Source: Alphaproteobacteria bacterium (lineage in GTDB: Bacteria > Pseudomonadota > Alphaproteobacteria > RF32 > CAG-239). Taken from it: a stretch of DNA of 64,000 nt. The notes under the pieces were generated by a model. It did no database searches, was not told the origin of the DNA, and saw nothing but the letters and a program-made list of their open reading frames with translations. Below, one piece after another: positions 4,363 through 13,463 of the stretch (within the stretch, counting starts at the first letter, position 1; each line of letters begins with the position of its first letter). The stretch lies in contig JAZUCK010000016.1 of assembly GCA_045639065.1 (NCBI GenBank), forward strand, positions 7,705 through 71,704. The letters are read 5' to 3'. A program made the translations under genes and the position numbers.

Positions 4363-4390
4363 CAAACTATGATTATTTATAAAAAAGTGC

Positions 4391-4420
4391 TTGATTTATA
4401 AAATATTTTTTTGTAATAAT
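4391..4420 (+). promoter_or_regulatory. sigma70-like promoter for tRNA-Trp (-35 TTGATT, 17-nt spacer, -10 TAATAA)
   Basis: The hexamers fit consensus with 17-bp spacing, about 14 nt upstream of the tRNA 5' end. Confidence 0.4.
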
Positions 4421-4433
4421 TAGTTCGCACGAT

Positions 4434-4509
4434 AGGGGTATAGCTCAGTTGGTAGAGCACCGGTCTCCAAAACCGGGTGTCGTGAGTTCGAATCTTACTG
4501 CCCCTGCCA
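4434..4509 (+). tRNA. trnW: tRNA-Trp (anticodon CCA)
   Basis: The sequence is nearly identical in architecture to E. coli tRNA-Trp. It has an AGGGGTA acceptor stem, a CTCCAAA anticodon loop, a GTTCGAATC T-arm and a 3' CCA. Confidence 0.9.
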
Positions 4510-4542: not shown

Positions 4543-4728
4543 TGGCAATAGGGGATGTTAGGTTCGAACTCACGAAGAAAGTGAGTTTGACAAGGAAGAC
4601 AAGGTGTGCGGAAGCCCACCGGTCAACGAAGTTGATGTCTGACGAAGCAACTCGAGCAAAAGCGAAGAGTAATCTTACTGCCCCTGCCAAAAAAAAGCCA
4701 CCTTTTAAGGTGGTTTTTTTTGGTTTGA
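4541..4728. repeat. tRNA-Trp 3'-end scar: inverted degenerate copy of tRNA 3' end (4541-4577, minus) plus direct copy of last 19 nt of tRNA and the whole terminator (4671-4728)
   Basis: The segment aatcttactgcccctgccaaaaaaaagccaccttttaaggtggttttttt occurs twice, at 4491-4540 and 4671-4728. The reverse complement of 4546-4577 matches cgtgagttcgaa...cccct..gccaa of the tRNA 3' end. Confidence 0.7.
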
Positions 4729-9174: not shown

Positions 9175-10422
9175 TCAGGCAACAGCCATTGCAATTTTGG
9201 CTTGGACACCTGCTGTTTGAGGCACACCTAAACTCTCTTGCAAGAAGTTCGACAAATTAGATGCCGAAATTGCTTGTTTTGGGATTCCGAAGGTGCTTGA
9301 AAGATATCCTTTCAAAGCCTCCCCAAACTCCATGACGACATGCTCTGGAGCTCCTAAAAACAACTCTTGCACGACGAGATATCCTCCAGGAATATCTTCC
9401 TTTCCGTAAAATTCGATGTACGAGCAAGCATACACGTCATCCGGATTGGTGATATTTACCTGTGGGTTTGACATCGCCACCATACTGTCTCCCCATTGAG
9501 GAATGCAGCCGATGAAGTCGCCAAACAAGTGACACCATACGTATCTAGCGGCTTTTGCAATGAAAATAGCTCGGCCATCTTCAGCAACTGAATAGAATTC
9601 GTATCTTTTGAAGAATTCTTCTTGAGATACTTCCCATCCGCCGTTACCTCCTTCGCAATAGTCAACAAACCATGCACCGTTGCCTTTTGCGATTTCTTGA
9701 GCTTCGTAAGCACCAAAGGTATGAGCCATAATGAACTCGCCTTCTTCGCTTAACCGAGCGTAAATAGGACGCAATGCATTCTTAATAGCAATGCTTGCAT
9801 TTCCTCGTTTACGCATTTCATCGTAAGCCATTTTTTTGAAGTTTACACCAACGGTGAACTTGCGATTTTTCTCGTTGTATAAATAACGAGGAACCTCTAC
9901 AAGCTCAGTACCATTGTGAGCAATATACTCCAATGTTTCATAAGTGCCTTCGCTTTCCGCGGTAATGTAGCCAAGATTATCAGCTTCCATTTCTTCGCGT
10001 TCGTAGCGTGAAACAAGATAGTACTTATTTCCTTTTTCGTCGTGCCAAAGTATGCCTGTGAGAGGTACAAATTGGGTGACGATTTCGCCGTTGCTTAGAG
10101 CAATAGCAGGGTTTTCGCTTTTCTTCAAAACTTTCGCAACTTTTTCTGGATTAGTTGAGTTGATCAACTTTGCCCAGTTTCCGTTTCCGTCTGTGAAGAA
10201 ACTTGAAAGAACCTTTTTGCCATCGCGGATAACAACCGGAGTTCCGTCGCTGTCGAAAGTTACATAACTTTTAACGCCCATTTGAATGGCCTCATTTGTG
10301 TTTGCAACAAGTGCATACTCATAACCTGCACGGTCAAAAAATTTTGTTTTCATAATGAATAAAAAAATTAGTAATTGGGCTTTAGTCCTTTGATCTTGCT
10401 TGCCTAAGGTAAGAGGACACAT
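9175..10422 (-). CDS. hypothetical protein (about 392-415 aa); possible start at internal Met (10353)
   Basis: A long intact ORF with no recognisable motif. It contains a Cys/His/Asp-rich segment (WCHLFGDFIGC). Confidence 0.45.
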   Translation of the reverse strand: MCPLTLGKQDQRTKAQLLIFLFIMKTKFFDRAGYEYALVANTNEAIQMGVKSYVTFDSDGTPVVIRDGKKVLSSFFTDGNGNWAKLINSTNPEKVAKVLKKSENPAIALSNGEIVTQFVPLTGILWHDEKGNKYYLVSRYEREEMEADNLGYITAESEGTYETLEYIAHNGTELVEVPRYLYNEKNRKFTVGVNFKKMAYDEMRKRGNASIAIKNALRPIYARLSEEGEFIMAHTFGAYEAQEIAKGNGAWFVDYCEGGNGGWEVSQEEFFKRYEFYSVAEDGRAIFIAKAARYVWCHLFGDFIGCIPQWGDSMVAMSNPQVNITNPDDVYACSYIEFYGKEDIPGGYLVVQELFLGAPEHVVMEFGEALKGYLSSTFGIPKQAISASNLSNFLQESLGVPQTAGVQAKIAMAVA

Positions 10423-10512
10423 TTAATATATTTACATCTTTAATAATATCATGTTTTTTTAGTCTACGCAAGGGGGAATAAATCGGTGATATTTGAAAGC
10501 CTTTTAATTGCC

Positions 10513-10748
10513 AAGTTATTGAAAAATATAGAAAGCTAGTTCGAAGATGGTGGAAAATAGGTGGCTGGATTGGGTACTCCCGCTCATAATCTTCGCGGGT
10601 CCTCCTCGCGTCGTAGGGCTCGCACGTCGTTTTACTTGTGCTTGCCAACTATCCGCTCCGAACCAAGTTGCTTCGCCTCAAAACCACACTCAATCCAACA
10701 AAAAAATCCTCCATAAAGGAGGACTTTTTTGTTGGCTGGAGACGACTT
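10513..10748 (+). repeat. about 230-bp GC-rich structured direct repeat, copy 1, ending in intrinsic terminator (aaaaaaatcctccataaaggaggactttttt)
   Basis: It is about 93% identical to 11746-11972. Long-range complementarity (tggattggg...ctcaatcca) plus internal hairpins suggest a folded RNA. Confidence 0.6.
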
Positions 10749-10834
10749 GCAATCTGCGAAATTAAAACCTTGATTTTCACTCTAAAATATGGTAATATCA
10801 GACTAGTAAGATAACTGTTTGGGAGCAAAATATC

Positions 10835-11620
10835 ATGATAAATGAGCCAGATTATAATATAAGCATTAGAGATGGTGGTGAAATTATCATGATGCGTCAT
10901 AAAGATTTTGCTGTATTTTCCGGAAACTATGAGACAGACGATAAATTTAGAGAATTTTGTGATATTTTGTTACTTAAAAGTAAAAATCGAAAGTGTATTC
11001 CAGAGAAAAGAGATACCCCTTGTTTTGAAGTTAAAACCACCATTTCTTCTGTAGAACGTGATAATGATGGTGCTATTAGAGTAAATGTTCCTAAAAATCC
11101 TTTTATGGGCTCTTTTGCTGTAAACTCTGATGATTTTCAATTTTCTGAAGGTCAAAATGTTTGGTATACAGATTCTAATCCACCCAAAATGCTTATTGGA
11201 GATGAAAAAAAATCTACAATAATTATTCAGCATTATAAAATGGGTTGGATGAGTAAGAATAAATATGATTATTATCAATTAAATGAAGCATCTAGAGCCA
11301 TATATGATGTACTAATAAAAGAAACTGATCATAATAAATTATATTCGTATTTACAAGATGTTGAAAAAATTTATAATGGAGAAGATGCGACATTTCTTTC
11401 TAGTAAATCTAATGAGTATAGAGAAAAGGCTACAGCTTTAGCAGAGGAATATAAAAAGATTAATAGAAAATCAATAATGAGAAAAGGTGAATTTTGTTTA
11501 ATGCATCCAGAAGATGTTAATGATTCTGGTATTGTGCAATCTGCTAAGGACTATGTTCCCTCTCATATAGCAACTTCTTTAAAATTACCTAATACCATAT
11601 TAAAAGGAAGATCTGTGTAG
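10835..11620 (+). CDS. hypothetical protein (261 aa) bracketed by the 230-bp direct repeats
   Basis: An intact ORF with no recognisable domain. A terminator hairpin follows at 11649-11676. Confidence 0.45.
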   Translation: MINEPDYNISIRDGGEIIMMRHKDFAVFSGNYETDDKFREFCDILLLKSKNRKCIPEKRDTPCFEVKTTISSVERDNDGAIRVNVPKNPFMGSFAVNSDDFQFSEGQNVWYTDSNPPKMLIGDEKKSTIIIQHYKMGWMSKNKYDYYQLNEASRAIYDVLIKETDHNKLYSYLQDVEKIYNGEDATFLSSKSNEYREKATALAEEYKKINRKSIMRKGEFCLMHPEDVNDSGIVQSAKDYVPSHIATSLKLPNTILKGRSV

Positions 11621-11648
11621 TATTTATTTGCTGTAATACACTTTTAAT

Positions 11649-11685
11649 AACCTACTGTCCTTAACATCAGTAGGTTATTTTTTTA
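11649..11685 (+). terminator. Rho-independent terminator (aacctactg ...cagtaggtt + T-run)
   Basis: A 9-bp stem and T7 run lie 29 bp after the stop of the 261-aa ORF. Confidence 0.6.
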
Positions 11686-11745
11686 TTCAACCTATGCAAA
11701 AATTTACATAGGTTCTTTTTCTGCTCAAAAAGGCTAAAATTTACT

Positions 11746-11972
11746 AAGTTATTGAAAAATATAGAAGCAAGTTCGAAGATGTTGTAAAATAGGTGGCTGG
11801 ATTGGGTACTCCCGCTCATAATCTTCGCGGGTCCTCCTCGCGGCGTAGGGCTCGCACGTCGTTTTACTTGTGCTCACCAACTATCCGCTCCGAACCAAGT
11901 TGATTCGCCTTAAAACCACTCTCAATCCAACAAAAAAATCCTCCATGAAAGGAGGATTTTTTTGCTGGCTGG
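11746..11972 (+). repeat. about 230-bp GC-rich structured direct repeat, copy 2, overlapping the 3' end of tRNA-Gln
   Basis: See copy 1. Its terminator hairpin (11925-11962) abuts the minus-strand tRNA-Gln. Confidence 0.6.
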
Positions 11973-12040
11973 GGTGGCTGGATTCGAACCAACGAATGAC
12001 GATACCAAAAACCGTTGCCTTACCACTTGGCGACACCCCA
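11966..12040 (-). tRNA. trnQ: tRNA-Gln (anticodon TTG)
   Basis: The reverse complement is TGGGGTGTCGCCAAGTGGTAAGGCAACGGTTTTTGGTATCGTCATTCGTTGGTTCGAATCCAGCCACCCCAGCCA. This nearly matches the E. coli tRNA-Gln(UUG) architecture. Confidence 0.9.
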
Positions 12041-12200
12041 ATAATATTTTATGTTCTTATCTCAGCCACTGGTGGCTGGATTGTGCGCCCGCTTCGCACT
12101 GCGCATCTTTCGCTGATTGCTCAAGACCGCCTCTCTTCTTTCGGCGTCCAACTGCGAATTACTTCGCAATTCTTGTTAGTCAAACCAAGCAAATTACGAA

Positions 12201-12240
12201 ACCAAAACTGTTTTCTCTACCACTTGGCGACACCCCAATA
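12201..12240 (-). pseudogene. degenerate duplicate of the 5' ~40 nt of tRNA-Gln
   Basis: Positions 12217-12240 (ctaccacttggcgacaccccaata) repeat 12019-12042 exactly. The upstream 16 nt are a degraded match. Confidence 0.55.
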
Positions 12241-12386
12241 TTTGGGCTCTCATTATGAGAACAGGCTTATATGTAAATTAAAATAAATATAATTGCAAGC
12301 ACTTTTTTATTATTGTGATAATTTTTTTTATTATTTTTACTAACAGTCATTCAGATACTTTATAAGTTTGCCGTAATTTATATATG

Positions 12387-13463
12387 CTAACGGTCTATGT
12401 CTATTGAAGCAAGTTGTATATTGCGTAGATTTTTATTTTGCATTGTGTTGTTTTCATTTAATGTCGGTGTTTGTGTGTTTTCTTGTATATCATTTTGCGT
12501 AATATTTTTGATGTTTTGCTTGTATTGTTTGTTGTCTTTTTTCATTTTTTCTATTGTATCTTTTGAATTTTTATTAGTTTGTTGAGTGTTGTTTAAATGC
12601 GTATGGTTGGTCGTTTGTCGTTTATTAACTCTATTCTCAAAAATGGTGGTATTATTTTTATATTTTTCAGCCATAGCCATTAAATATTGAGTATCTTTAA
12701 GCTCGGAAGAATTATTATTATGAGGCAGATTACGCATTGATTGGTTATAAGGGACATCACCTATTTCTTTACCGCTTAGGTCGTAAAAAGTAATTTGTCC
12801 GATATCATCACAAGTAACAATTTGTTGTCCAAAAGGTTTGCCATCAAGTGTTACGGAAAACCCTTTTATCTGTTGGCCGTTTTTTTCAAGCATTTCGTTC
12901 TTTATCTCAACGGTATGTTTGTTTAAATCTATTTCTTTTCCCATGTTGTACAACTTCATGTTTTGGATATTGCCCTCTGAGTCATAGAGGACCATAGCTC
13001 CATGTCTTTTTTTATTAACCATACTTACCATAACATGATTACCCTTGTCATCGTCGATTGTTCTAATCTCGGAAGTGAGAACTTCATCATCAAAATAGGA
13101 TACAAGATCTATATCTAAAGAATTAGATCTTTTTTGTTCCTCCAAATATTTTTTTACGCCTTCATCTGTATCAACACTATCGCAAATATAAGATAATTCT
13201 TCCGGTAATAATTGATCCTTAAATTGTTCGCAAAGTTGTGTAGATAATATAGAACGTTGATACTCAGTCATATCGGTTTTGATTATGCTATTGATCATTC
13301 TGTTTGCTAAAAAGGGAGCGTCTAAAAATATTAAGCCATATTTATCGGCAATCTCTCGTTCATCAGAAGTTAAATTTAAGAATTCATATTTCTCTTCATC
13401 GGTAAGAGGTTCAACTTCACACATATCTTTCATTGCGTTTAATTTTTCTGTTAATGTTGTCAT
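12387..13463 (-). CDS. hypothetical protein with long Asn/Gln/Thr/Lys-rich low-complexity C-terminal tail
   Basis: A 358-aa intact ORF. The C-terminal 110 aa are N/Q/T/K-rich (NNTQQTNKNSKD...), a eukaryote-like low-complexity feature. It is divergent from the Hsp70-like gene. Confidence 0.5.
   Translation of the reverse strand: MTTLTEKLNAMKDMCEVEPLTDEEKYEFLNLTSDEREIADKYGLIFLDAPFLANRMINSIIKTDMTEYQRSILSTQLCEQFKDQLLPEELSYICDSVDTDEGVKKYLEEQKRSNSLDIDLVSYFDDEVLTSEIRTIDDDKGNHVMVSMVNKKRHGAMVLYDSEGNIQNMKLYNMGKEIDLNKHTVEIKNEMLEKNGQQIKGFSVTLDGKPFGQQIVTCDDIGQITFYDLSGKEIGDVPYNQSMRNLPHNNNSSELKDTQYLMAMAEKYKNNTTIFENRVNKRQTTNHTHLNNTQQTNKNSKDTIEKMKKDNKQYKQNIKNITQNDIQENTQTPTLNENNTMQNKNLRNIQLASIDIDR

Follow-up and report, generated by a model that had tools for sequence, protein, structure and literature searches.

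A pair of structured repeats beside an alphaproteobacterial tRNA-Gln gene has the layout of the RtT units of Escherichia coli

Islands that integrate into tRNA genes carry displaced fragments of the tRNA 3' end at their borders, and both T-loop and 3'-end sublocations of integration are known. The tyrT repeats of Escherichia coli and their rtT RNA, described between the late 1970s and the early 1990s, have mostly been regarded as an enterobacterial oddity and have, to our knowledge, no agreed function. Its annotation places the E. coli gene rttR on the same strand as the tRNA, and one tyrT repeat unit is reported to encode it; the same annotation and citations of Bosl and Kersten (1991) present RtT RNA as a stable molecule of about 171 nt that is released from the tRNA operon transcript. 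From the rRNA operons of E. coli, PMC8144298 describes the sRNAs rrA, rrB and rrF, which lie between dual terminators. The repeats compared with these systems here come from a stretch of 64,000 nucleotides (the window) from an uncultured low-GC alphaproteobacterium.

The repeats (10513-10739 and 11746-11972) are direct and 94.3% identical over 228 columns by BLASTN and MAFFT, which agrees with the value of about 93% in a preliminary description made from the sequence. A repeat finder returns an ungapped match of 198 nt at 92% between the two copies and follows a weaker likeness (82%) out to 10496/11729. The structured parts (10560-10699 and 11792-11931) have a GC content of 0.55-0.56 and the cores of both copies 0.59-0.60, compared with 0.366 for the whole window and 0.29 for the ORF between the copies, so that the GC-richness claimed earlier is real (55-60% in the repeats, 37% in the genome); the AT-rich 46-nt part of each repeat has 0.24-0.28. 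Within 208 kb, a covariance model of the Gln-type element matches the five known copies only, which speaks against a common dispersed repeat. Of six informative sites, copy 2 agrees with the close relative L009 at five and copy 1 with L010 (and mostly with L006) at four or five; the copies are therefore not a fresh duplication.

Copy 2 adjoins tRNA-Gln, and the last 7 nt of that tRNA, CCAGCCA (11966-11972), recur at the edge of copy 1 (10733-10739), both as first described. What had been overlooked is that the elements are made of tRNA-Gln pieces, that two more of them stand in the window (Trp, 4543-4689; third element, 12071-12237) and that their layout is that of E. coli RtT. Each unit runs from a terminator hairpin through an inverted copy of the tRNA 3' part (Y in Table 1) and the T-stem 5' strand with TTCG to a GC-rich core of about 87 nt, and then through AAT and the T-stem 3' strand to the acceptor 3' strand. 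Copy 2 begins 34 nt past tRNA-Gln, and copy 1 is set apart from the tRNA by a cassette. The 12-nt sequence AATCCAGCCACC, which is that of tRNA-Gln from the T-loop on, is found 163 nt past the tRNA end and recurs both in copy 1 and in the third element; discriminator base and CCA are missing from the two window copies. Judged by its sequence, the core is placed exactly inside the T-loop copy, and in every element TTCG (or TTTG, CTCG) stands before it and A(A/G)TC after it, the target not being duplicated. Gln-type elements have a weak inverted tRNA copy, which scores 7-8, where that of E. coli scores 14.5 and those of the Trp, Leu, Ser and Thr elements 13-16.

Table 1. Positions of the features in the window.
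Feature	Position	Strand	Evidence or remark
tRNA-Gln (anticodon TTG), CCA encoded	11966..12040	-	ARAGORN; Rfam tRNA model 56.7 bits
Y, the 3' part of tRNA-Gln (T-arm, acceptor 3' strand, CCA)			template from which the elements' tRNA-like pieces derive
T1, terminator hairpin of tRNA-Gln (A7, TCCTCC, loop, GGAGGA, T7)	11932..11965	-	sequence; inverted repeat
Copy 2, RtT-like element, Gln type	11792..11931	-	covariance model 182.6 bits
Copy 2, degenerate inverted copy of Y	11931-11901	-	
Copy 2, T-stem 5' strand and TTCG	11895-11891	-	
Copy 2, GC-rich core	11890-11804	-	87 nt
Copy 2, AAT-CCAGC-CACC	11803-11792	-	direct copy of the tRNA 3' part that stops short of CCAGCCA
Copy 2, AT-rich flank	11746..11791	-	part of repeat; motif CATCTTCGAAC at 11771-11781
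Inserted gene cassette	10740..11745	+	ORF 10835-11620, 261 aa
CCAGCCA (10733-10739), then T1', copy of terminator hairpin	10700..10739	-	
Copy 1, RtT-like element	10560..10699	-	core 10658-10572; tRNA 3'-end copy 10571-10560; covariance model 182.3 bits
Copy 1, flank	10513..10559	-	motif CATCTTCGAAC at 10539-10549
Third element	12071..12237	-	full-length copy of tRNA-Gln, degenerate; identity of 82% in the 5' half
Sister element behind tRNA-Trp (4434-4509)	4543..4722	+	inverted copy of the tRNA 3' part; 81-nt core (4590-4670)

The third element has a different core, of 98 nt (12180-12083), placed at the same T-loop position; it is preceded by the tRNA promoter and followed by the intact tRNA-Gln, and L009 lacks it. 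Behind tRNA-Trp, the sister element ends in a full tRNA 3' end with CCA (4671-4689), followed by a second, identical terminator, and the locus shows an exact direct repeat of 50 nt at a spacing of 180 bp. ARAGORN reports only two tRNAs. The flank of copy 1 lies upstream of a 392-aa gene (9175-10353), and an AT-rich flank of the copy 2 type is also found at cassette borders in relatives. Synteny around the 392-aa protein is poor and gave no orthologous tRNA-Gln loci; a contig scan with this protein found two loci.

Among 13 tRNA genes examined in the window and in relatives, which are uncultured gut and rumen Alphaproteobacteria, nine have the layout behind them: besides the tRNA-Gln described, these are tRNA-Trp in the window, tRNA-Met (L001, L005), tRNA-Leu (L002), tRNA-Ser (L005), tRNA-Thr (L018) and tRNA-Gln (L009, L010). 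The inverted copy is clear at +41 to +59 in the Trp, Leu, Ser and Thr elements and weak and degenerate, near +47 to +59, in the Met and Gln types. In seven of the nine elements the direct copy lies at +143 to +163; it is found at +238 in Ser and is degenerate in Thr. The unit period in the seven with a clear direct copy is 161-181 bp. Direct repeats of the tRNA 3' end that start in the T-loop measure 19 nt in L010, 50 nt at tRNA-Trp and 20 nt at the Met locus of L005, and the first terminator is unlike the second in L010 and at the Ser locus of L005. The cores are single-copy and mostly unlike each other in sequence; those of Leu and Thr, from different genomes, have a common block (z = 7.4). 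Searches further afield returned little: distant BLAST against a phage collection gave tRNA-Gln matches only, viral contigs scanned with two element patterns gave no match, and a literature search on elements of this sort downstream of tRNA genes in Alphaproteobacteria returned nothing relevant. Of six metagenome pattern matches, three (L007, L008, L011) are chance matches in GC-rich coding DNA.

The comparison with RtT (RF00391) is close in layout. In both, the element follows a tRNA gene and shares its strand, the 3' end of the cognate tRNA, from AATC in the T-loop on, is repeated directly at the close of the unit, and an inverted copy of the T-arm and acceptor about 40-60 nt past the tRNA makes a closing helix. 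T-arm sequence also supplies a hairpin in both, and a GC-rich core is placed after TTCG(A); the Rfam RtT consensus structure has the identical closing helix and a hairpin from T-arm sequence; in both, units can be repeated. In the E. coli tyrT/tyrV units the inverted copy is found at +57 to +60, the direct copy follows at +160 (+160 to +163 in the Gln type), and the period is 178 bp. The direct copy is 19 nt long in E. coli, 12 nt (AATCCAGCCACC) in both window copies and 19 nt including CCA in L010. The Rfam RtT model, which gives 133-138 bits for the E. coli units, has no match at E <= 10 over 10300-12500 or in copy 2 alone; the Met element of L001 reaches 14.6 bits (E = 1.3), on the correct strand and in register, against a threshold of 45 bits. 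Gln-type cores show no similarity to E. coli RtT cores (z = -1.1 to 0.1), the core of the L001 Met element resembles the RtT core (z = 4.5, 0 of 300 shuffles), and the Trp core of the window gives z = 3.4. Because the Gln core is unlike that of RtT, kinship has to be argued from the layout and from intermediate members of the family. The window repeats thus share with RtT the tRNA-trailer position (on the strand that folding suggests), the 3'-end copy and the closing helix, and differ from it in core sequence, with scores below gathering.

The minus strand, on which the tRNA also lies, gives the best reading of the structure. Alignment folding with alifold gives -38.4 kcal/mol there and -29.1 kcal/mol on the opposite strand; folded as single sequences, six of eight elements have an MFE that is 9-15 kcal/mol better on the tRNA side, with no preference in Leu and Ser; and 16 G.U cells are valid solely on the tRNA strand, compared with 4 A.C cells. 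We assign the structure to the tRNA side because of these energies and this asymmetry, a bias that would fit folded single-stranded DNA as well as it would RNA. In an alignment of five Gln-type copies, two of them from this window, 40 pairs are formed in 97% of cells and six are changed on both sides, which none of 500 shuffles matched. The complementary ends noticed in the preliminary description belong to a real closing helix, which has 9-14 pairs and is preserved across five homologues (14 predicted pairs, 96% paired in the five copies). The Gln-type copies also have the T-arm-sequence hairpin CGAAUCA/UGGUUCG; their invariant blocks include GGTTCGGAGCGGATAGTT, GCGAGGAGGACCCGC and GCGGGAGTACCCAATCCAGCCACC; and the loops are variable, CCUCCU being unchanged in all five. 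A joint alignment of different core types yielded no common structure.

Several known RNAs and elements were considered as identities for these sequences and set aside. Searches with Rfam, at gathering and at E <= 10 (window, locus, Trp locus, copy 2 alone), returned tRNAs and chance matches only, as for an uncharacterised RNA: 6S and other structured RNAs have no match at the gathering score, and a tmRNA-like RNA has none in Rfam or ARAGORN, the element also being too short. A hammerhead ribozyme (core CUGANGA ... GAAA) is suggested by CUGAUGA...CGAAG in the Met element of L001 only, which scores 12.9 bits where 52 are needed and has G at position 15.1; its orthologue in L005 has CUGGUGA. The window copies contain an SD-like AGGAGG and an ATG, as a small peptide gene might; start codon and frame are lost in L006, L009 and L010. 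For an IS110 bridge RNA, an IS605 omega-RNA remnant or a group II intron behind a terminator, no recombinase and no RNA-model match were found, and the elements are single-copy. Inverted triplication through template switching during replication accounts for the direct-inverted-direct order of the pieces, not for the core or the fixed length.

Between the copies lies a self-contained gene cassette of 1 kb, and comparison with relatives shows that it was inserted into the copy of the tRNA 3' end. Its ORF261 has its own promoter-like sequence (TTGATT-17-TAATAT, 10770-10798), a GGGAG ribosome-binding site and hairpin terminators at about 11647-11720. Ten homologues, of 38-93% identity, occur in different contexts on short contigs. 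No family match was found for ORF261; PHROGs and PADLOC, applied to it and to its neighbours, gave nothing useful, its confidently predicted structure (pLDDT 87) has no significant fold match, and exact database look-up of three window proteins gave no record. In L010 the end of the unit is unbroken, ..CCAGCCACC|CCAGCCA, and a second terminator comes after it; the tRNA 3'-end copy of the window and that of L009 are split at the identical point, CCACC|CCAGCCA, by different cargo. The cassettes of L006, L009 and the window are edged by an AT-rich flank with the motif GTTCGAAGAT. The geometry thus suits the idea, raised at the outset, of attL and attR around a 1-kb cassette; the enzyme expected with it is missing, with no integrase, resolvase or transposase domain among the 40 window ORFs scanned or in the called genes beside elements in L001, L002, L005 and L018.

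The reading we favor, at a probability of roughly 0.55, is that the repeats are RtT-type tRNA-trailer units, cognate to tRNA-Gln and carried on the minus strand. The inverted copy would pair with the direct copy to close a multi-helix fold with a tRNA-like end, and tRNA-processing enzymes might trim that end to leave a stable RNA of about 140-180 nt. On this reading the locus is a small array: the cassette lies within the copy of the tRNA 3' end that belongs to unit 2, with CCACC on one side and CCAGCCA on the other, and copy 1 is the second unit beyond it. The hairpin T1 is symmetric, its base lengthened by CCAGC/GTTGG, and so is terminator-like on either strand. Because this strong intrinsic terminator (a 6-bp G+C stem lengthened by A:T pairs, then T7) stands between tRNA and element, transcription of the element would need terminator read-through; copy 1 has no tRNA promoter upstream. 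The window units may also be less processable than the intact unit of L010, since both have lost the CCA end.

The preliminary description considered another RNA, an independent plus-strand sRNA gene of about 170 nt in each repeat. Such a gene would start near GGTGGCTGG, be closed by the long-range stem and end at an intrinsic terminator, and its RNA might act by means of the CU-rich loop GGUCCUCCU or of 12 nt that can pair with the 3' part of tRNA-Gln. Part of this survives, in that each repeat does hold a conserved structured element, of about 140-180 nt, and a hairpin with A-run and T-run (TCCTCC/GGAGGA, 10700-10730 and 11932-11963). The T-runs on the plus strand at both hairpins, the 46-nt AT-rich upstream stretch kept between the copies and in L009, L015 and L016, and the invariant CCUCCU loop are what such a gene would lead one to expect. 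The strand is wrong, however, by folding and by pair statistics, and only on the plus strand does the hairpin end the repeat; on the strand carrying the structure it precedes the element and belongs to tRNA-Gln. No sigma-70-like promoter lies upstream of either copy on the plus strand, a plus-strand RNA in L006 would be without a terminator because the hairpin there has no A-run, the Trp sister element is enclosed by two terminators that leave no room for an antisense promoter, and the E. coli RNA of the same layout is on the tRNA strand. We regard this model as highly improbable, and hardly more can be said for a small non-autonomous mobile element, whose core would be the remnant of an insertion sequence (an IS200/IS605-type miniature or an intron-like insert, for example) targeting TTCG|AATC in T-loops and surviving in spare tRNA copies only. 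The constant junctions of the core without target duplication, the third element as an almost complete tRNA-Gln copy with an insert that L009 lacks, and the block common to the Leu and Thr cores would suit such a history. Set against it are cores that are single-copy and mostly unrelated, the failure to find a transposase or TnpB nearby or near-identical copies elsewhere in 208 kb, and the age and conservation of orthologous elements; the inverted tRNA copy and the constant unit length would be left unexplained.

Integration offers an account that is unlikely but deserves more weight. The elements would be footprints, miniature remnants of elements that recombined site-specifically into the T-loop or 3' end of the tRNA; each integration would have brought a replacement tRNA 3' end and terminator, the direct copies would be attL/attR cores, the GC-rich core would be left over from attachment-site arms or be a recombination site that acts in the form of folded single-stranded DNA, and new integrations into the displaced tRNA end would lengthen the array. 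Direct repeats that begin in the T-loop (L010, tRNA-Trp, L005 Met) accord with this history, as do the unlike first and second terminators in L010 and L005 Ser, expected if one arrived with the element, the different cargo at one junction in the window and L009, the recurrent AT-rich flank at cassette edges, the varied contexts of ORF261 homologues on short contigs and the site matches by which copies 1 and 2 are no fresh duplication. Yet no recombinase is found in the 40 window ORFs or beside any of the nine elements, and diverged genomes have retained the elements at orthologous tRNAs (Met in L001 and L005; Gln in the window, L009 and L010). Decaying scars would not be expected to show invariant blocks or covarying stems, the near-fixed unit length (161-181 bp in seven of nine elements, and similar in E. 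coli) is unlike that of random deletion remnants, and a T-stem 5' strand and inverted copy within the unit are unexpected in attR.

The RtT layout, found at no fewer than six tRNA species and tailored to each, together with covarying stems, points to a conserved function or generating mechanism. Its offsets and unit length are now seen in an uncultured low-GC alphaproteobacterial lineage, whose elements supply comparative material for working out the structure. A tRNA-derived element marks the border of exchangeable gene cassettes, and annotators should be aware that GC-rich, terminator-flanked "sRNA genes" beside tRNAs may lie on the opposite strand. More speculatively, and with a good deal less assurance than the reading of the repeats themselves, RtT-type units may be a widespread and so far unrecognised class of companion elements in Alpha- and Gammaproteobacteria, each cognate to its tRNA, with a structured core exactly in the T-loop of a tRNA 3'-half copy and a fixed length of about 180 bp. 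Apart from yielding a processed RNA, they might offer in their tRNA-like end a landing pad for the insertion and exchange of cassettes without a linked integrase; if so, small integron-like arrays would exist behind tRNA genes.

Comparison with known systems places the locus among several neighbors. Like tRNA-integrated islands, it has direct repeats of the tRNA 3' part (12-50 nt), a restored tRNA with its own terminator, variable cargo beyond and successive insertions into the displaced copy; unlike them, it has an inverted tRNA copy, no integrase found in the window or in the genes by the elements, and a segment between repeats that is about 130-190 nt, structured, conserved and of fixed length. 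Integron attC sites are likewise strand-biased imperfect palindromes, of about 60-140 nt, between promoter-poor or single-gene cassettes; here no IntI was found, the cassette has its own promoter and the element is tRNA-derived. An attC site proper (5' RYYYAAC ... GTTRRRY 3') was rejected because no integrase was found and because the order of the boxes is reversed on either strand (5' GTTGGAT ... ATCCAGC 3'). Some elements resemble rrA, rrB and rrF in that two terminators enclose a short structured sequence downstream of a stable-RNA gene (tRNA-Trp; Gln in L010; Ser in L005); the sRNAs of the rRNA operons are unrelated to them in sequence and lack tRNA-derived ends, and the two Gln copies of the window have no second terminator. 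RtT remains the nearest in layout, and the differences from it are specific: an intrinsic terminator hairpin stands within the unit here and not in E. coli, the copies are split by a gene cassette where those of E. coli are in tandem, and the elements are cognate to at least six tRNA species, where those of E. coli are cognate to tRNA-Tyr only.

The two repeats beside tRNA-Gln are best supported as two minus-strand trailer units of that tRNA, built like RtT (Rfam RF00391, the 178-bp repeats behind the E. coli tyrT/tyrV tRNA-Tyr genes), with a cassette between them. The copies are 94.3% identical over 228 columns (BLASTN, MAFFT); a repeat finder gives an ungapped match of 198 nt at 92%, and weaker similarity (82%) reaches out to 10496/11729. 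GC content is 55–56% in the structured 140-nt parts and 59–60% in the cores, against 36.6% in the window overall and 29% in the ORF between the copies. Each repeat holds a hairpin with an A-run and a T-run on its flanks, and the last seven bases of tRNA-Gln (CCAGCCA), which copy 2 abuts, recur at copy 1. The preliminary description was thus accurate as an observation; its interpretation, as plus-strand sRNA genes or att sites around a 1-kb cassette with an orphan ORF, is upheld in part. Rfam searches returned the window's two tRNAs and, even at E <= 10, nothing further above chance level. The Gln-type element is not a dispersed repeat, since its covariance model matched just the five known copies in the 208 kb searched. 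The surrounding genes are those of an ordinary chromosome (Tol-Pal, transhydrogenase, pyruvate kinase, an aminoacyl-tRNA synthetase, ribosomal protein L17, pseudouridine synthases), and homologues of a neighboring gene come solely from metagenome-assembled genomes (MAGs) labeled Alphaproteobacteria, from gut and rumen sources.

Features of the window and of comparison loci (L numbers; uncultured gut and rumen Alphaproteobacteria)
Feature	Sequence	Position	Strand	Basis
Copy 1 (structured part 10560-10699)	window	10513-10739	-	BLASTN, MAFFT
Copy 2 (structured part 11792-11931)	window	11746-11972	-	BLASTN, MAFFT
CCAGCCA of copy 1	window	10733-10739	-	
tRNA-Gln(ttg)	window	11966-12040	-	tRNA prediction
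ORF261 (261 aa)	window	10835-11620	+	
Trp element	window	4543-4722	+	
Third element	window	12071-12237	-	
Promoter context, tRNA-Trp	window	~4388-4420		
Promoter context, tRNA-Gln	window	12262-12300	-	
GTTCGAAGAT(G/T) motifs	window	10539-10549, 11771-11781		
392-aa protein	window	9175-10353	-	
358-aa protein	window	12387-13463	-	
Partial second Leu unit	L002	7510-7575	-	
Phe/Val tRNA	L001	6489-6564		
Phe/Val tRNA	L005	8747-8822		

Read along the tRNA strand, each repeat comprises CCAGCCA; a terminator hairpin; GTTGGATTGAG..., which repeats the T-arm and acceptor 3' strand of the tRNA in inverted, degenerate form; CTTGG-TTCG (T-stem 5' strand and first half of the T-loop); a GC-rich core of 87 nt; AAT-CCAGC-CACC (remaining T-loop, T-stem 3' strand, and acceptor 3' strand); and an AT-rich flank of 46 nt. 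Bordered by the two parts of the T-loop, the core is therefore placed exactly within a T-loop copy, and the element is closed by pairing of the inverted with the direct copy. A sister element behind tRNA-Trp runs from a terminator through an inverted tRNA 3' part, an 81-nt core, and a full tRNA 3' end with CCA to an identical second terminator, and contains an exact 50-nt direct repeat at a spacing of 180 bp. The third element copies tRNA-Gln over its full length, though degenerately, and carries at the same T-loop position another core, of 98 nt. It is the product of a tandem duplication that took in leader and tRNA; in the close relative L009, which lacks it, the leader leads directly into tRNA-Gln. 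Its place between the tRNA promoter and intact tRNA-Gln means that it is probably co-transcribed with the latter. The promoter contexts at the start of the two window tRNA units are alike (AAAAAAGTGCTTG(A/C), ~17 nt, TAATAA or TACATA), and tRNA-Leu in L001 and L005 comes after a comparable AAAAAATGCTTGATT. Directly upstream of the tRNA-Gln promoter lies the 358-aa protein, whose long low-complexity tail is rich in Asn, Gln, and Lys and which matches no family apart from a weak PHROG hit.

A systematic scan found the element at 9 of 13 tRNA genes of these loci: besides those of the window, behind tRNA-Met in L001 and L005 (orthologous, the elements ~70% alike and the tRNA identical), tRNA-Leu(cag) in L002, tRNA-Ser in L005, tRNA-Thr in L018, and tRNA-Gln in L009 and L010, with tRNA-Phe/Val and tRNA-Leu(gag) lacking it. 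The Gln-type copy in L006 is located behind the terminator of a protein gene. Four elements (Trp, Leu, Ser, Thr) show a clear inverted copy, at +41 to +59 counted from the tRNA; that of the Met and Gln-type elements is weak and degenerate. A direct copy opening with AATC or AGTC is placed at +143 to +163 in seven of the nine elements; for Ser it lies at +238, and for Thr it is degenerate. Upstream controls scored at background, except at the third element. In L002, a further, incomplete copy that takes in the terminator and the tRNA-Leu element's 5' part follows ~170 nt past the first, which suggests that units duplicate in tandem in relatives too. The conserved 392-aa protein, which adjoins a tRNA-trailer element in L002 and in the window, has 38 homologues confined to related MAGs, no match in Pfam, PHROG, or PADLOC, and a gene neighborhood that differs in most genomes examined. 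The near-identical tRNAs at an orthologous position in L001 and L005 (CTGAAAATC vs CTGACACTC) differ in anticodon, with GAA (Phe) in one MAG but GAC (Val) in its counterpart; the difference could stem from an assembly error or from a shift of the anticodon.

Single-sequence folding is better on the tRNA strand by 9–15 kcal/mol in six of eight elements, and alifold of the five Gln-type copies gives -38.4 kcal/mol there vs -29.1 kcal/mol on the opposite strand. The tRNA strand pairs 191 of the 197 pair cells and the opposite strand 179, with 16 G.U cells vs 4 A.C cells. The proposed structure pairs 97% of cells and includes six pairs changed on both sides, a result reached by 0 of 500 shuffles, and slid controls fall to 27–41%; because the sample is small (five Gln-type copies, two of them rows from the same window), the evidence on strand and constraint is suggestive but not conclusive. 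One hairpin has a loop of 11 nt that is down to 2 nt in L006, yet the 5-bp stem is kept, and three sequence blocks are invariant among the copies. Together these observations suggest a structurally constrained element with the tRNA strand favored, although folded single-stranded DNA would also produce this strand bias. Of the proposed sRNA gene, a conserved structured element is supported, but the plus strand is disfavored: folding favors the tRNA strand, no promoter-like site was found upstream of either copy, the L006 hairpin has no A-run and so would give a plus-strand RNA no terminator, and the Trp element is shut between two terminators.

The cassette is best seen against L010, where an uninterrupted unit ends in ...AATCCAGCCACC joined to CCAGCCA-GAG, followed by a second terminator and an inverted pair of GTTCGAA(A/G)AT motifs. 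In the window this end is split after CCACC, and there follow an AT-rich flank with CATCTTCGAAC, the ORF261 gene, ...GTCGTCT joined to CCAGCCA, and then a repeat of the terminator and the second unit. L009 shows this split at an identical point, along with the flank, and carries a different cargo (2.7 kb) whose end is ...GGCTTG joined to CCAGCCA-GAG; an L010-type terminator and a second flank copy come next. In L006, direct repeats bearing the window flank's motif enclose a 520-bp cassette; and L015 and L016 join an ORF261 homologue and a flank 95% identical to the window's to a different partner. Six sites within the element tell the window copies apart: copy 2 sides with L009 at five of these, and copy 1 matches L010 at five of them and L006 at three, so that the window pair is not a fresh duplication. 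Read on the strand opposite to the elements, ORF261 comes with a promoter-like TTGATT-17-TAATAT, a ribosome-binding site, and terminators of its own. It is no orphan, having ten homologues (38–93% identity, every one on short contigs); searches gave no family match and no fold match despite a confident predicted model. The motif GTTCGAAGAT(G/T) or its complement, similar to the T-loop region, occurs repeatedly at cassette borders behind tRNA-Gln (window, L006, L009, L010, L015, L016), sometimes as an inverted pair 27–30 nt apart; otherwise the window has fewer TTCGAA sites than expected (11 vs ~22).

These insertion junctions, set against intact L010, bear out the small integrated cassette proposed earlier, but among 40 window ORFs scanned no integrase or transposase was found. 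The main rival to trailer units builds on the same data: site-specific integration into the 3' end of the tRNA would have left the units behind as conserved relics or would still use them as active sites. The junctions are consistent with this; conservation of the elements, their fixed unit size, and the failure to find a recombinase do not fit. On the best-supported reading, as trailer units, the cassette entered the first unit at its tRNA-like end and parts it from the second. Expression would then likely proceed by read-through of the tRNA terminator and trimming at the tRNA-like end, as E. coli and the dual-terminator arrangement at tRNA-Trp, L010, and L005 Ser lead us to infer; a precedent is given by E. 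coli rRNA-operon sRNAs, which are reported to arise by terminator read-through (PMC8144298). Both readings are compatible, and an RtT-like unit could double as a cassette landing site.

The E. coli K-12 tyrT-tyrV locus shares this construction (GGGGAAGGAUGAGAAgCUUCGAccaAGGUUCGA, core, AAUCCUUCCCCCACCACCA), with the inverted copy at +57 to +60, the direct copy at +160, and a period of 178 bp vs 161–181 bp in the seven elements of the present set whose direct copy is clear. Its units score 133–138 bits with the Rfam RtT model, which scores the L001 Met element in the right strand and register at 14.6 bits (E = 1.3) and does not match copies 1 and 2. When cores are aligned to the RtT core, only L001 Met (z = 4.5) and window Trp (z = 3.4) stand out and the Gln core is at background level; Leu and Thr cores align to each other at z = 7.4. 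With kinship by sequence this thin, we file the repeats as RtT-like in architecture and putative mode of working, outside RF00391 as currently defined. Through the finding, a long-unexplained E. coli curiosity now reaches a distant lineage as well as many tRNAs, and the question becomes tractable.
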